A DNA stretch of 5,244 nucleotides from a virus (IMGVR_UViG_2703718777_000003:1-5244); one strand, 5' to 3'; shown: positions 1 to 4,575, numbered from the stretch's first letter. Translations and numbers: made by a program. Notes: generated from the letters alone by a model not told the origin.

Positions 1-144
1 CAGTACCAGCACCTGAATCCGCGATTATCCCATATACCTACTCGCTGATTGCCCCTCCGCACAGGGGGATTCACCATGCCAGTTTCTTTTAACAAACTCC
101 CCGCAAACCAGACAACAGTCAACCGCCTGAATTGTGAGACATTT

Positions 145-170
145 AAAAAAAAGGCCCGCAAAAGCGAGCC
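145..170 (-). terminator. Intrinsic terminator immediately downstream of the tRNA-like gene
   Basis: On the minus-strand RNA: 7-bp GC-rich stem (GGCUCGC/GCGGGCC, one G-U pair) with UUUU loop (plus 153-170), followed by an 8-U run (plus 145-152 is AAAAAAAA). On the plus strand the stem has a C-A mismatch and no T-run, so it is minus-specific. Confidence 0.6.
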
Positions 171-184
171 AGGGAAAATAAGTG

Positions 185-260
185 TGGCGCGTTGTACTGG
201 ATTCGAACCAGCGACCTGGCGATTATGCGTCGCTCGCTCTCACCACTGAGCTAAAGGGCC
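185..260 (-). tRNA. tRNA-Ile2/Met-like (anticodon CAU) gene, possibly a pseudogene: cloverleaf body intact, acceptor 3' strand non-complementary
   Basis: Reverse complement of 185-260 reads GGCCCTT-TA-GCTC-AGTGGTGA-GAGC-G-AGCGA-CGCATAA-TCGCC-AGGTC-GCTGG-TTCGAAT-CCAGT-ACAACGC-G-CCA. D-arm, anticodon arm and T-arm (GGTTCGAATCC) are canonical and the 5' two-thirds resembles E. coli ileX as I remember it. But the 5' acceptor strand GGCCCTT cannot pair with the 3' strand ACAACGC (2 of 7 pairs), and position 33 is G rather than the near-universal U. Encoded CCA is present. Confidence 0.55.
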
Positions 261-269
261 GGGAGCAGA

Positions 270-298
270 ATAATAACGGTCCGTAATTAATTCCGCAA
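270..298 (-). promoter_or_regulatory. Candidate sigma70 promoter for the tRNA-like gene
   Basis: Minus strand TTGCGG (298-293), 17-nt spacer, TATTAT (275-270); the -10 lies about 10 nt upstream of the tRNA 5' end at 260. The -35 is weak (3/6). Sequence-only prediction. Confidence 0.3.
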
Positions 299-322
299 TA
301 AAAAACCCGCTCAATGGCGGGT
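296..322 (-). terminator. Intrinsic terminator downstream of the ORF6N gene
   Basis: Minus-strand hairpin ACCCGC-CATTGA-GCGGGT (plus 305-322) followed by TTTTTTATT (plus 296-304). The plus strand lacks a T-run after the stem. Confidence 0.6.
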
Positions 323-418
323 TCTGGTAAAGTTCATGCGCTTGGTTCGCCTCGCGATACAGCTTTGCGAAGCATACAGGAATTGAAGCAGTTTATGTGC
401 AAAAATGCAAGAACTTTT

Positions 419-1000
419 TTAAAGCTGCATCAACCTTTCCACCAGTTTATCTCTGCGAACAACAAACCAACCATTGGCTCTCGCCAGTTCCAGCCATGAC
501 TCAAGGGAAATAACAATATCATCATCCCGTAACTGAATTGTGGAAACAGTGACACCGCCTCTCTGATAACAGAGAACTCGCGTGTCGTAACTTTTCTGGC
601 ATGAAACTGGCGCTGACGGATCCTTTTGTCTGAAATAGCAGTCTTCCAGCTTTTCGAACACATCCCACGCCTGATCGGTTTCCAGCATTTTGGCATGACG
701 GGCTGCTCCGCGTTCTGTCCAGAGGATGAGGGAGCGGGCTTTCGGGGAAATTTGTAACCCTCTTAAAGATGGTTGCAAATTTTGTGAGTAGTTTAAAGCT
801 ACCCGCAAATTTTTCAGGGCATCGCCAGCCACTTTGAAAAAATGCTTTCCTTCAATAAAGCGCTCAGCATTTCTGGCGTAGTTATTTTGAATGTTCTTAA
901 CTCCAGCACCGTACAACTGCGCCAAAAGTTCGGTGGTAATAACAGGAATCTGGTTATGGGTGATCGGGGAGAGAGTTTCAACAGAAATTTGAGTTGTCAT
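419..1000 (-). CDS. ORF6N-domain protein (phage antirepressor-like, DNA-binding N-terminal domain; C-terminal about 90 aa unassigned)
   Basis: 193-aa ORF with ATG at 1000-998 and SD GAGGG 7 nt upstream (AGAGGGCGTCATT-ATG); stop TAA at 421-419. The N-terminal region (ITTELLAQLYGAGVKNIQNNYARNAERFIEGKHFFKV ... ISPKARSLILWTERGAARHAKMLETDQAWDVFEKL) fits the ORF6N pattern (L-YG...N..RN..RF.EG..FF ... tErGa) from memory, not from a search. Confidence 0.8.
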   Translation of the reverse strand: MTTQISVETLSPITHNQIPVITTELLAQLYGAGVKNIQNNYARNAERFIEGKHFFKVAGDALKNLRVALNYSQNLQPSLRGLQISPKARSLILWTERGAARHAKMLETDQAWDVFEKLEDCYFRQKDPSAPVSCQKSYDTRVLCYQRGGVTVSTIQLRDDDIVISLESWLELARANGWFVVRRDKLVERLMQL

Positions 1001-1011
1001 AATGACGCCCT

Positions 1012-1116
1012 CTGGTGGTTTCTAAACCATCACCACCGTCAGGTTCCTAATCATCGGGTGGTGAGACGTACAGGGTTAGGAACTACCGGGAAACCAACCG
1101 GCGAGCTTTTCAGCTC
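1012..1116 (-). repeat. Repeat-rich structured leader: nested inverted repeats with pseudoknot-type topology plus a GAAA-tetraloop hairpin
   Basis: Plus-strand arms: TCACCACC 1030-1037 with GGTGGTGA 1057-1064; GTTCCTAA 1043-1050 with TTAGGAAC 1076-1083 (interleaved S1a-S2a-S1b-S2b); GGTGGTTT 1014-1021 with AAACCATCACC 1025-1035 abutting the SD; GAGCT-TTTC-AGCTC 1103-1116 (GAAA loop on the minus RNA). Confidence 0.5.
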
Positions 1117-1160
1117 CCCCATACGCCCCACCATAATTCAGATGTGCGCGTGCATACGAC

Positions 1161-1186
1161 AATAAAAAACACGCTCGCGGCGTGTG
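1161..1186 (-). terminator. tR'-like intrinsic terminator downstream of the Q-adjacent promoter
   Basis: Minus-strand RNA has a 6-bp GC-rich stem (ACACGC/GCGTGT, plus 1169-1185) with a 5-nt loop, followed by UUUUUUAUU (plus 1161-1169). It lies about 80 nt downstream of the predicted start site. Confidence 0.55.
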
Positions 1187-1247
1187 TCTGTCGCGGTCTC
1201 TATCCGGGGTTCCTAATCCCGACGCCAGATTTTGCTGGCGCGTGAGG

Positions 1248-1277
1248 AATATAGCCCCGGATAACAGATTGAGTCAA
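1248..1277 (-). promoter_or_regulatory. pR'-like late promoter; the -35 overlaps the Q stop codon
   Basis: Minus strand TTGACT (1277-1272), the same -35 hexamer I recall for lambda pR', then a 17-nt spacer to CTATAT or 18-nt to TATATT (1254-1248). The Q TGA stop (1276-1274) lies inside the -35. A short GC hairpin (CGCCAG/CTGGCG, 1222-1241) sits in the initial transcribed region. Confidence 0.5.
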
Positions 1278-2947: not shown

Positions 2948-3028
2948 CAACAGAATCCTTCCAGATAAATAGCACTCCCCTGCTCGGGGTCCATCCCTCT
3001 TCTCCCTGCGCGCTACTTAAGTGCATCG

Positions 3029-3056
3029 ATTCTAGTCAGGCATACCCGCTTATCAA
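3029..3056 (-). promoter_or_regulatory. Candidate sigma70 promoter for the small ORF/DUF1367/DUF1364/Q operon
   Basis: Minus strand TTGATA (3056-3051), 16-nt spacer, TAGAAT (3034-3029), located just downstream of the bidirectional terminator. Sequence-only prediction. Confidence 0.4.
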
Positions 3057-3109
3057 CAAACGAAGGTCGGTTTAGTGGAGGAATCGGCTAAAACTTGATC
3101 TGTTAAAGT

Positions 3110-3136
3110 AAAAAACCCGCCGAAGCGGGTTTTTTG
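3110..3136. terminator. Bidirectional intrinsic terminator
   Basis: AAAAAACCCGC-CGAA-GCGGGTTTTTT: a perfect 6-bp stem with 4-nt loop, flanked by A6 on one side and T6 on the other, so a hairpin plus U-run is formed on either strand. Sits 5 nt after the nuclease gene stop. Confidence 0.7.
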
Positions 3137-3140
3137 TATA

Positions 3141-3626
3141 TTACATACTCTCAATGTCATTTTTTAGTGAGTGCTTGTGTAACTCCATGGAGTAATCAAC
3201 ATCACGAAGAGTTTTTTCAATCTGCTTGTTCCCAATAAAAGGTTTATCTTCAGGGTTACCCCAACAGCAATTCCCCTTGGGCCATCCATGTACTTTCCGT
3301 ACTCTTCCGTTAACAACGTGAAGTAATCCCCAGCCGGGTGGTAAATCCTCAATTGAAATAATTCCCGGCTCACTAATAAAGAATCGCCAGTCGCCCATTC
3401 CAAGAGACGGATTTTTACGAAAACGCTTTTTTCTATCTGCCAACAAGTCAGCACGAGAACATTTCGCCTCTATCAGGCATGATGCTGAATTTCTGAATCC
3501 CATAGCATCTGGCTGTTCTCCGGTACTGGTTACAGCTATAAAGCGGTCATGAAAACAAACCTTGAACCCGTTGCGCTTAAGGAACTTGTACGCAATCTGA
3601 CAGAGTTCGCGGTGTGTTAACGCCAT
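3141..3626 (-). CDS. PD-(D/E)xK nuclease-fold protein, Hjc-like (archaeal-type Holliday-junction-resolvase-like core) with a C-terminal extension of about 80 aa
   Basis: 161 aa from ATG 3626-3624 with SD AAGGAGAG (the ORF-track start at 3656 is TTG). Motif order HRELCQIAYKFLKRNGF ... QPDAMGF ... CLIEAKCS matches the E...PD...(E)xK catalytic core. Start lies 1 nt after the Ead/Ea22-like stop (TGA-T-ATG). Confidence 0.8.
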   Translation of the reverse strand: MALTHRELCQIAYKFLKRNGFKVCFHDRFIAVTSTGEQPDAMGFRNSASCLIEAKCSRADLLADRKKRFRKNPSLGMGDWRFFISEPGIISIEDLPPGWGLLHVVNGRVRKVHGWPKGNCCWGNPEDKPFIGNKQIEKTLRDVDYSMELHKHSLKNDIESM

Positions 3627-3627
3627 A

Positions 3628-4575
3628 TCACTCTCCTTTGATGCGAATGCCAGCAAGCCAGTTTCTTATGCCGATATATTCAGCGTTCCTGAAACCGCTT
3701 TTTACATATATAAATGGCAAGCGAAGATTGTGACCATTGACTGCCAGGTAGTCTTTACAACCCTGTTCGGTGAAACAGCAGGTAACGAATTCATCAATAT
3801 CTTTCACAGCAACGCGCCGCCATTTTTCTGGTGGCTCTCGAAAGTTTTCATGAAGTAGCTCGAGACGACGACTATGGCGTTTATTGGCTTCATTGCCATC
3901 TTCGTCAACCCAGACAATCCGGTCATGGTCATAATCAGCATCAACAACGATTTCGCGCTTTTGATACACACAAAACATGGGATCTGACGTTATTCGATTG
4001 TCCTGTGTTCGAATATTTTCACCGATGATGCCAAACGAATCTGGTGCAGATTTTGTCTGCATCTCTTCGATACGTTCAGCCATCGCAGCACACTCTTCAA
4101 AGTTGCTTAATGCTTTTCGCTCCCATTCGGCGCATTGTTTTTCCAGTTCTGCTATGCGCTTACTTCCATCCGCGATTACTCCCTCGTAATATTCACGCTG
4201 CTCGTTGAGTTTTGATTTTGCTGCTTCAAGCTCAACGCGCAGCTTCCCTACCGTAAGCGCAATATCCTCGTTCTCCTGGTCGCGGCGTTTGATGTATTGC
4301 TGGTTTCTTTCCCGTTCATCCAGAAGCGCCAGCGCAACATTTGGATTAAAGGCAGCAATAAATTCAGCGTTTGCATAAGCCTGAACATCTGTTTCAACCA
4401 GGCAGTTAACATGACATTCTGCAATTACGCCACCGGGTTCTCCTTTCCATTTTTGACAAACAAAAACTCCTGTTATATTCCCATGCTGATTGCCCGATGT
4501 ATGCCCTACGATGTAGCATCCTTTAGTTGCTTTCTCTGCTGCTTCACGCAGCGCCTGATAGTCAATCTCGCTCAT
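3628..4575 (-). CDS. Ead/Ea22-like family protein (conserved N-terminal domain, central coiled-coil, divergent C-terminal domain)
   Basis: 315-aa ORF. N-terminus MSEIDYQALREAAEKATKG... resembles Ead/Ea22-like prophage proteins from memory; the centre is heptad-like and charged (ELEAAKSKLNEQREYYEGVIADGSKRIAELEKQCAEWERKAL). ATG at 4575-4573 overlaps the upstream TGA as ATGA. Confidence 0.8.
   Translation of the reverse strand: MSEIDYQALREAAEKATKGCYIVGHTSGNQHGNITGVFVCQKWKGEPGGVIAECHVNCLVETDVQAYANAEFIAAFNPNVALALLDERERNQQYIKRRDQENEDIALTVGKLRVELEAAKSKLNEQREYYEGVIADGSKRIAELEKQCAEWERKALSNFEECAAMAERIEEMQTKSAPDSFGIIGENIRTQDNRITSDPMFCVYQKREIVVDADYDHDRIVWVDEDGNEANKRHSRRLELLHENFREPPEKWRRVAVKDIDEFVTCCFTEQGCKDYLAVNGHNLRLPFIYVKSGFRNAEYIGIRNWLAGIRIKGE

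Follow-up and report, generated by a model that had tools for sequence, protein, structure and literature searches.

The window analysed here is a stretch of 5,244 nucleotides (nt) of viral DNA (IMGVR_UViG_2703718777_000003:1-5244), and the subject of this report is ant, a gene on its minus strand for a protein of 193 amino acids (aa) of the ORF6N/AnrP antirepressor type. The gene is read from an ATG at position 1000 down to 419, is preceded by the Shine-Dalgarno (SD) sequence AGAGGG (1013..1008), and lies directly 3' of the gene for a Q antiterminator, with 273 nt in between. Matches to small-RNA families fill the leader between the two genes, and a compact unit with a promoter-like sequence and a terminator follows ant. 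A first-pass annotation, made from the sequence alone, had described ant as late-operon cargo under the control of Q. The features on which the present analysis rests are collected in Table 1.

Table 1. Features of the window, beginning with ant and its leader.
Feature	Position	Strand	Evidence
ant gene, 193-aa ORF6N/AnrP-type antirepressor	419..1000	minus	Open reading frame (ORF) call, Pfam, PHROG, AnrP homology
Target region on ant mRNA	1008..1050	minus	b2 UUAGGAAC 1050..1043; a2 GAAACCA 1022..1016; SD AGAGGG 1013..1008
10-codon mini-ORF, predicted	1022..1054	minus	Read from sequence; ATG overlaps orf27 TGA
orf27, truncated E. coli form of Gifsy-1 orf45, MVGRMGELKSSPVGFPVVPNPVRLTTR	1051..1134	minus	ORF list; translation predicted
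C4-type antisense RNA (STnc1160/orf45' equivalent of Gifsy-1)	1054..1138	minus	Rfam C4 (RF01695), 67 bits, gathering 45
IsrK-like small RNA, 78 nt	1164..1241	minus	Rfam isrK (RF01394), 69.4 bits, gathering 50
c4-a1b1 (RF03163) match	1201..1254	minus	Rfam, 47.8 bits against gathering 46.7, marginal
Predicted cassette promoter (PisrK equivalent)	1248..1277	minus	Promoter scan 10/12; conservation
Probable late promoter/qut/tR' unit (positional equivalent of Gifsy-1 isrJ)	297..410	minus	Alignments, Q-type tracking, fold
Q antiterminator gene, DUF1133 type, 184 aa	1274..1828	minus	Pfam, PHROG, relatives' gene calls
tRNA-like element, appears degenerate	185..255	minus	Rfam tRNA, 37.3 bits, model positions 7-64 only
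STnc100-family small RNA, 5' part, cut by window end	1..108	minus	Rfam, 52.2 bits, gathering 47

The ant gene and its product

The ORF at 419-1000, which the first-pass annotation had found without giving its strand, is a real gene: an identical protein occurs in more than 2,800 blocks of the collection and on more than 1,000 contigs, and because of these copies chance is far exceeded. NCBI names the identical protein 'ORF6N domain-containing protein'. The ORF6N-type N-terminus claimed at first pass is borne out by a Pfam profile search, in which ORF6N (PF10543) matches aa 12-105 with E = 4.1e-19 and 69.1 bits, against a gathering cut-off of 27.8, over profile positions 3-86 of 86. Its antirepressor-like character holds as well. 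PHROG 2379 'anti-repressor' covers the whole protein (E = 1e-90), and BLASTP aligns Ant with AnrP of prophage Gifsy-1 over the full length, aa 1-190 against 1-184, at 54% identity (E = 1e-67).

The protein consists of an ORF6N module of the KilA-N superfamily (aa ~10-125), a linker (123-138) and a C-terminal domain (139-193). The unassigned C-terminus of about 90 aa described at first pass stands in so far as the Pfam profile search gave no match to residues 106-193. Its extent has to be revised, since in the family alignment and in an AlphaFold (AF2) model the conserved core reaches about aa 125, which leaves a separable domain of only ~55 aa. The model, built on an alignment of 33 family members, is of moderate confidence over aa 10-125 (pLDDT about 70-89). 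It gives the C-terminal domain (139-192) a beta-hairpin and two helices at weak confidence (pLDDT 57-68), and no fold was assigned. A sequence search of the PDB with Ant (best E = 0.81) and a Foldseek search of the model against the PDB (best E = 0.76) returned nothing usable. Fold matches in BFVD, which holds predicted viral structures, are to KilA-N, antirepressor and Bro proteins, and given the confidence profile of the model we attribute them to the N-terminal module. Across the family alignment, Ant and AnrP have in common the C-terminus GW.V..RD.L.E.L in addition to the invariant core, and the family as a whole is a mosaic in which that core is joined to one of two or three C-domain alleles, a pattern that would be compatible with partner specificity.

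Prophages with the identical Ant encode a 139-aa repressor that consists of a helix-turn-helix domain only and has no peptidase domain. It is a member of the small non-cleavable GfoR/RacR/DicA class, whose repressors are inactivated by antirepressor binding (PMC3121763).

Promoter and RNA elements between Q and ant

All three Rfam families matched in the leader (c4-a1b1, isrK and C4) score above their gathering thresholds, and the structured leader of the first-pass annotation is thereby confirmed. They are preceded by what is predicted to be a near-consensus sigma-70 promoter, with -35 TTGACT (1277..1272), an 18-bp spacer, -10 TATATT (1253..1248) and a predicted start at G1241. The stop codon of Q (TGA, 1276..1274) falls within the -35 hexamer. 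Alignment shows this promoter to be kept from the -35 onward in every genomic context in which the cassette (the promoter with its RNA elements and ant) is found.

The IsrK-like small RNA (sRNA) begins with hairpin 1. The loop of hairpin 2 contains box b1 UUAGGAAC (1216..1209), and next in order come box a1 GAGACC (1200..1195) and, according to the fold and a terminator scan, an intrinsic terminator (1185..1169 plus U-run). It is near-identical to isrK of E. coli ED1a (S7, PMC4825925). The C4-type RNA is laid out as a long closing stem, a GAAA hairpin, the loop a' UUGGUUUC (1097..1090) and the single-stranded segment b' GUUCCUAA (1083..1076). Its minimum free energy is -42.9 kcal/mol (z = -4.5), and none of 200 shuffles was equally stable. 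On the ant mRNA, box a2 adjoins the SD, which is partly sequestered by a local hairpin in the fold. The leader ORF orf27 (27 aa) is near-identical to ORF45 of E. coli ED1a (S8, PMC4825925) and truncated in the same way. Its stop codon (1053..1051) lies 50 nt before the ant ATG, and the mini-ORF ends 21 nt before it.

This layout has been published for Gifsy-1, where the order is antQ - isrK - orf45/STnc1160 - anrP (STM2616/SL2578) - isrJ (Hershko-Shalev et al. 2016, PMC4825925). That the isrK promoter drives anrP transcription was shown there with reporter fusions in uninduced Salmonella (280 Miller units, as opposed to 3 without the promoter). The long anrP mRNA is untranslated until IsrK is provided in trans, upon which a translational fusion rises 139-fold, and AnrP raises antQ-operon mRNA and induces Gifsy-1 (PMC4825925). 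A processed species of ~80 nt from the C4 region has also been seen in Gifsy-1. The late, Q/pR'-coupled control proposed at first pass finds no support in this comparison: ant has a cassette promoter of its own, and in Gifsy-1 the homologous promoter drives anrP, with control exerted at translation through IsrK. Expression independent of Q, which the first-pass annotation had itself named as speaking against its proposal, is what has been found for this experimentally studied homologue.

Complementarity and co-variation of the RNA boxes

From viral contigs and other loci, 76 distinct cassettes were gathered. They contain 23 different a' loops and 15 b' segments in 35 combinations, and nearly all have matching boxes both upstream in IsrK (a1, b1) and downstream by the ribosome-binding site (a2, b2). 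The longest antisense match between cognate boxes averages 7.7 nt for a'-a2, 7.05 for b'-b2, 6.9 for b'-b1 and 6.5 for a'-a1, compared with means of 4.1-4.5 nt for non-cognate box types. The a and b boxes co-vary three ways across the 76 cassettes.

In the window, the antisense match between a1 GAGACC and a' would require a G-U wobble (read by eye from the sequence). Calculated on the window sequence, the duplex of IsrK with the accessible part of C4 has an energy of -32.4 kcal/mol, a value reached by 2 of 500 shuffles, and that of C4 with the leader amounts to -22.9 kcal/mol, with 37 of 500 shuffles as good. The stronger C4-IsrK duplex, as evidence from a single sequence, fits a role of IsrK as a competitor that frees the leader.

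Some prophages hold two ant cassettes, namely those at loci L014 (2290-2476 and 5588-5768), L049 and L105. Both the a' and the b' boxes differ between the two copies in L049, and b' differs in L105, which suggests orthogonal RNA 'immunity types' inside one genome.

A probable late promoter downstream of ant

A unit at 410..297 begins 9 nt past the ant stop codon. It has a -35 TTGCAT (410..405), 17 bp, a -10 TTCAAT (387..382) and a second -10-like hexamer TATGCT (376..371), followed by a leader of ~75 nt and a terminator hairpin (324..304) with a U-run. Bases 418..405 resemble a vestige of the 3' end of Q.

The first-pass annotation had proposed to check whether homologous prophages have the same gene after Q. 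Among 27 species-representative loci with a DUF1133-type Q, the cassette follows Q in three, the closest relatives only. In the other loci a conserved unit stands at +45-56 after Q and matches the 410..297 block of the window in alignments: it has a -35 TTGATT/TTGCAA and, after a spacer of 17 bp, a -10 TTCAAT/TTGAAT, with another -10-like hexamer ~5 nt on, a short leader and a strong terminator. Five E. coli phages, too, have this block beneath an annotated Q gene or after it, and the elements of phage vB_EcoS-666R9 run ybcO - Q - unit - orf - holin - endolysin - Rz. The type of unit goes with the type of Q. Type A accompanies DUF1133 Qs of 72% identity or more, and stands at +45-56 where the cassette is absent and at +877-916 where it is present. 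Type B accompanies distant DUF1133 Qs (56-64% identity) with one exception (L025), and the isrJ-type unit accompanies the unrelated PF06323 AntQ of Gifsy-1.

Because the block adjoins Q in relatives without the cassette and is of a type that goes with the family of Q, ant most likely lies between Q and pR', as the last element before the late operon and not as a member of it. On its position, conservation and co-variation with Q type, the 410..297 unit is the probable Q-cognate late promoter, with qut site and tR'. The late-operon position assigned at first pass is accordingly not supported, since the block that adjoins Q elsewhere sits downstream of ant here. As for the gene's 'own terminator', the hairpin and U-run are present, and they belong to a separate promoter/leader/terminator unit, so that we infer the terminator seen 3' of ant to be the tR' of that unit.

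The unit aligns position for position with IsrJ and is a positional and architectural analogue only; contigs of the Gifsy-1 type reach 92-102 bits with Rfam isrJ (RF01393), a model that matches nothing in the window at E <= 1. The 5' end of IsrJ has been mapped and its expression from its own promoter on a plasmid reported, and a 910-nt Gifsy-1 transcript terminates at the isrJ terminator.

Both junctions of the cassette (1272-1277 and 405-424) coincide with promoter -35 hexamers, TTGACT and TTGCAT, which suggests recombination at a short common TTGA/TTGC motif.

Distribution of the cassette

The genomic context was examined for 103 viral-contig cassettes with both flanks. A DUF1133 Q precedes the cassette in 10, all of which have an AnrP-type C-domain and a type A unit after ant; the remaining cassettes, about 90%, lie elsewhere in phage genomes and have other Ant types. 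In the nin region of VT2-Sakai, for example, the cassette stands upstream of Q together with a 58-aa ORF and a P22-Ant-like gene. Because the homology between contexts starts exactly at the -35 TTGAC, the cassette is, on these alignments, a portable module with its own predicted promoter.

Full-length ant is present in 118 of 5,426 complete E. coli genomes. With this number, and with the Gifsy-1 layout in print, the first-pass view that the arrangement is not the usual one no longer applies. Partial matches in 882 genomes are mostly to the first ~125 codons, which are common to other ant genes. The window itself is mosaic, and no complete genome matches it at more than 78% coverage.

In O121, O157 and O111 Shiga toxin-producing E. 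coli (STEC), the ORF6N orthologue is entered in the annotation as a truncated pseudogene, and the upstream RNA cassette is kept; an example is L001:6626-6976 (NZ_CP032811 and 14 other STEC genomes). Two further records, L003 (PP818812.1, 'Actinobacillus phage vB_Apl-pPE4') and L018 (a contig of a 'Candidatus Nanosynbacter' metagenome-assembled genome), contain DNA ~88-98% identical to E. coli prophage sequence (Q, cassette and ant), and their host attribution or binning looks doubtful.

Q and other neighbouring features

The position of ant directly downstream of Q, as given at first pass, is secure. The gene at 1828..1274 matches DUF1133 (Pfam, E = 2e-106), weakly Phage_antitermQ (26.5 bits), and PHROG 753 'anti-termination protein Q-like', and gene calls of 184 aa are present in the relatives L004-L011. 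Against PDB sequences, Q21 structures gave a marginal match only (E = 0.018), and this provided no usable model of a Q-binding element. Further upstream, a DUF1367 gene and ybcO precede Q, as is typical of a lambdoid nin/Q region.

Beyond the 410..297 unit, the tRNA-like element is identical in sequence to an annotated tRNA-Met in RefSeq NZ_CP032811 (L001). It has a CAT anticodon and an ileZ-like position, and the ends of its acceptor stem are apparently non-complementary by eye. Because ARAGORN finds no tRNA in the window, it is treated as degenerate, probably a decayed phage tRNA. A terminator found by the terminator scan at 170..153 precedes the STnc100 part. STnc100 also occurs shortly after Q in L015, L019 and L023, and is apparently found there regularly, in the early part of the late-operon region.

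A LexA-box scan of the window gave no site near either promoter, with matches solely in the Ea22-like gene region. A perfect CTGT-N8-ACAG palindrome resembling a LexA box, CTGTTCGGTGAAACAG, lies at 3763-3778 inside the Ead/Ea22-like gene and may be due to chance. The intergenic region 2951-3140 contains the promoter-like sequence TTGATA-16-TAGAAT (3056..3029, minus strand), and ~3107-3216 shows weak, sub-threshold matches to several sRNA/leader families; the region possibly encodes another small structured RNA or a terminator.

Proposed mechanism and alternatives

We consider it likely that ant encodes an AnrP-type antirepressor on a portable module resembling immI of P1, controlled by a C4 RNA and inserted between Q and the late promoter of Q. 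The locus is then a further case of a known prophage-induction module, whose layout in Gifsy-1 is already published. The sigma-70 promoter at 1277..1248 would fire in the lysogen, as seen for the Gifsy-1 homologue, and most transcripts would end at the IsrK terminator, giving an sRNA of ~78 nt with boxes a1 and b1. Read-through RNA would hold the C4 element, whose a' loop and b' segment would pair with a2 and b2 5' of the ant SD and keep the mRNA silent. For this step the complementarity and co-variation were found here and the silencing itself in Gifsy-1. An excess of IsrK acting in trans would pair through a1/b1 with a'/b', as in Gifsy-1, so that the leader would be freed and ant translated. 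Ant would then inactivate a small non-cleavable repressor of the GfoR/RacR type and turn on the early operon including Q, and Q would act at the 410..297 unit to allow expression of the lysis and other late genes. This last part of the scheme is drawn from the induction of Gifsy-1 by AnrP and from the biochemistry of the Gifsy antirepressors. The long ant transcript would end at the terminator of the 410..297 unit.

Several points weigh against this scheme. The immunity region, with the prophage's own repressor, lies outside the window, and binding of a repressor by Ant is a putative function, as it is for AnrP itself. Unlike orf45 of Gifsy-1, the leader ORF stops short of the ant start, and the published orf45 coupling model may not transfer to this locus; because the E. 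coli leader ORF is truncated (27 aa plus the 10-codon mini-ORF), coupling to ant may work differently. The -35 of the 410..297 unit is weak and a consensus promoter scan missed the unit, and at L025 a type A block goes with a Q of 64% identity. Finally, IsrK has been described as the product of an antitermination-regulated promoter (Sy et al. 2020, PMC7547250). PMC4825925 contains no test of AntQ on the isrK promoter or terminator, and the comparative data favour the IsrJ-type unit, rather than IsrK, as the pR' leader.

A broader generalization can be offered tentatively, at somewhat less than even odds: that ant cassettes have repeatedly landed at the junction of Q and its late promoter, in at least two unrelated Q families; that the RNA after ant (IsrJ in Gifsy-1, 376..297 here) and not IsrK would be the pR'-tR' transcript resembling 6S or StxS; and that ant would be the terminal gene of the early operon.

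It is unlikely that Ant instead serves as a sequence-specific DNA-binding regulator, using its ORF6N/KilA-N module directly on phage promoters and not binding a repressor. The KilA-N superfamily is predicted to bind DNA, the fold matches are labelled 'KilA-N DNA-binding domain', and PMC4825925 shows the effect of AnrP (on antQ-operon mRNA and induction) and leaves its mechanism aside. All annotated relatives, however, are named antirepressor, and the layout of the module is homologous to immI of P1, whose Ant is an anti-repressor of C1. Prophages of this kind carry non-cleavable repressors that require antirepressors, and the variable C-terminal alleles fit partner specificity.

Somewhat more doubtful is a role of ant as late-operon cargo, in which the promoter after Q would be pR', IsrK its constitutive terminated RNA comparable to lambda 6S or StxS, and Q would antiterminate into ant and the lysis genes. 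The promoter does start at the Q stop codon, the classic site of pR', and a short terminated RNA follows it, but in ~90% of cases promoter and IsrK are found away from any Q, as in VT2-Sakai, where the cassette precedes Q and the tRNA and stx genes come directly after Q. At +8..+13 of IsrK there is a -10-like CAAAAT, in principle capable of supporting sigma-dependent pausing (read from the sequence), and PMC7547250 describes IsrK in these terms; yet one and the same cassette stands after two unrelated Q families, although Q loading sites are Q-specific. No terminator separates ant from the downstream unit, as this role would have it, but the block that tracks Q type is kept after ant in 10 of 10 Q-linked viral loci and in L004, L014 and L039.

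That gene and cassette are inactive, decaying passengers of a cryptic prophage is very improbable: the truncated STEC orthologue, the degenerate look of the adjacent tRNA and the mosaic window would agree with it, but the ORF is intact with a good SD and its protein recurs identically on more than 1,000 contigs, the RNA boxes are all still mutually complementary, and the promoter is near-consensus.

With ant as an AnrP-type antirepressor on a C4-controlled module, a gene whose placement seemed odd becomes an instance of a characterised prophage-induction switch. The switch is common in prophages of E. coli, Shigella and Salmonella, among them the prophages of Shiga-toxin strains, in which the tipping of induction affects toxin release and gene transfer. 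The role in inter-prophage cross-talk suggested at first pass is plausible, as is one in induction: AnrP induces Gifsy-1 (PMC4825925), and the Gifsy antirepressors act in trans on the repressors of other prophages (Lemire et al. 2011, PMC3121763). The many orthogonal a/b specificities suggest heteroimmunity at the RNA level between co-resident prophages. If ant is indeed terminal in the early operon, the module could be a positive-feedback switch, in which Ant leads to derepression and derepression to more read-through ant mRNA, and dozens of orthogonal a/b 'RNA immunity types' would gate co-resident prophages independently. The analysis also places the probable late promoter of DUF1133-type Q proteins after the ant gene. 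By analogy, the virulence-linked Salmonella sRNA IsrJ, which is associated with invasion through Salmonella pathogenicity island 1 (SPI-1), may be a pR' leader transcript. Examples of IsrJ aligned with the 297-410 unit are L084:714-788 and L057:405-479, which have the promoter architecture in common with it.

Comparison with known systems

Like ant, cargo genes of the stx type (PMC7547250) are neighbours of Q and have tRNA genes and a short terminated RNA close by. The difference is that ant has a promoter of its own and precedes the probable pR', and that its studied homologue is transcribed without induced Q. The antirepressors GfoA, GfhA and GftA, together with Tum and AntC (PMC3121763), would have the same end point as proposed here, inactivation of small non-cleavable repressors of the GfoR/RacR/DicA type with possible prophage cross-talk. 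These proteins belong to unrelated families and are under transcriptional control by LexA, whereas control here would be by RNA.

The ant genes of Shiga toxin (Stx) phages (VT2-Sakai, the 933W group, antA of phage 2851) share the promoter/IsrK/C4 cassette at 84-94% identity, and over aa 1-125 they share the ORF6N N-terminal module at ~79%. Their place is either upstream of Q in the nin region or close to the left genome end; they have other, P22-Ant-like C-domains and, in VT2-Sakai, a leader ORF of 58 aa.

In P1, C4 is processed by RNase P, and Rho-dependent polarity plays a part. In the immI region of P1 and P7 (c4 - icd - ant), C4 RNA and Icd control Ant, the anti-repressor of C1, according to the account of Citron & Schuster 1990 and Riedel et al. 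1993 given in PMC8201110. Our comparison with P1 rests on Rfam families and the literature; a divergent group of 'CGTTACACTG' cassettes was considered as P1 and ruled out, its members being other lambdoid and Stx phages. Common to both systems are an RNA of C4 fold made from the same transcript as its target, the predicted pairing of a'/b' with a2/b2 at the ribosome-binding region, an upstream copy a1/b1, boxes that set specificity, and an antirepressor as the product. P1 is a plasmid prophage and the host here a lambdoid one. The window has an intrinsic terminator between a1/b1 and C4, so that a1/b1 would become a free sRNA, IsrK. It appears to have no icd-like cell-division inhibitor, only the 27- and 10-codon ORFs, and its a2 adjoins the ant SD.

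The closest known system is that of Gifsy-1, although its Q is of the PF06323 and not the DUF1133 type, its downstream unit is of another sequence family (the window lacking an Rfam isrJ match), its a/b box specificity is not the same, its orf45 overlaps the ant start where the leader ORF of the window has 27 aa and ends 50 nt before ant, and the C-terminal domain alleles are ~35% identical. Gene order, element sizes, the Rfam isrK and C4 matches, the cassette promoter and the full-length homology of the proteins are all alike, and in both a short promoter/leader/terminator unit follows about 10-45 nt after ant. The E. coli ED1a leader reported in the Gifsy-1 study (PMC4825925) is near-identical to the leader of the window.

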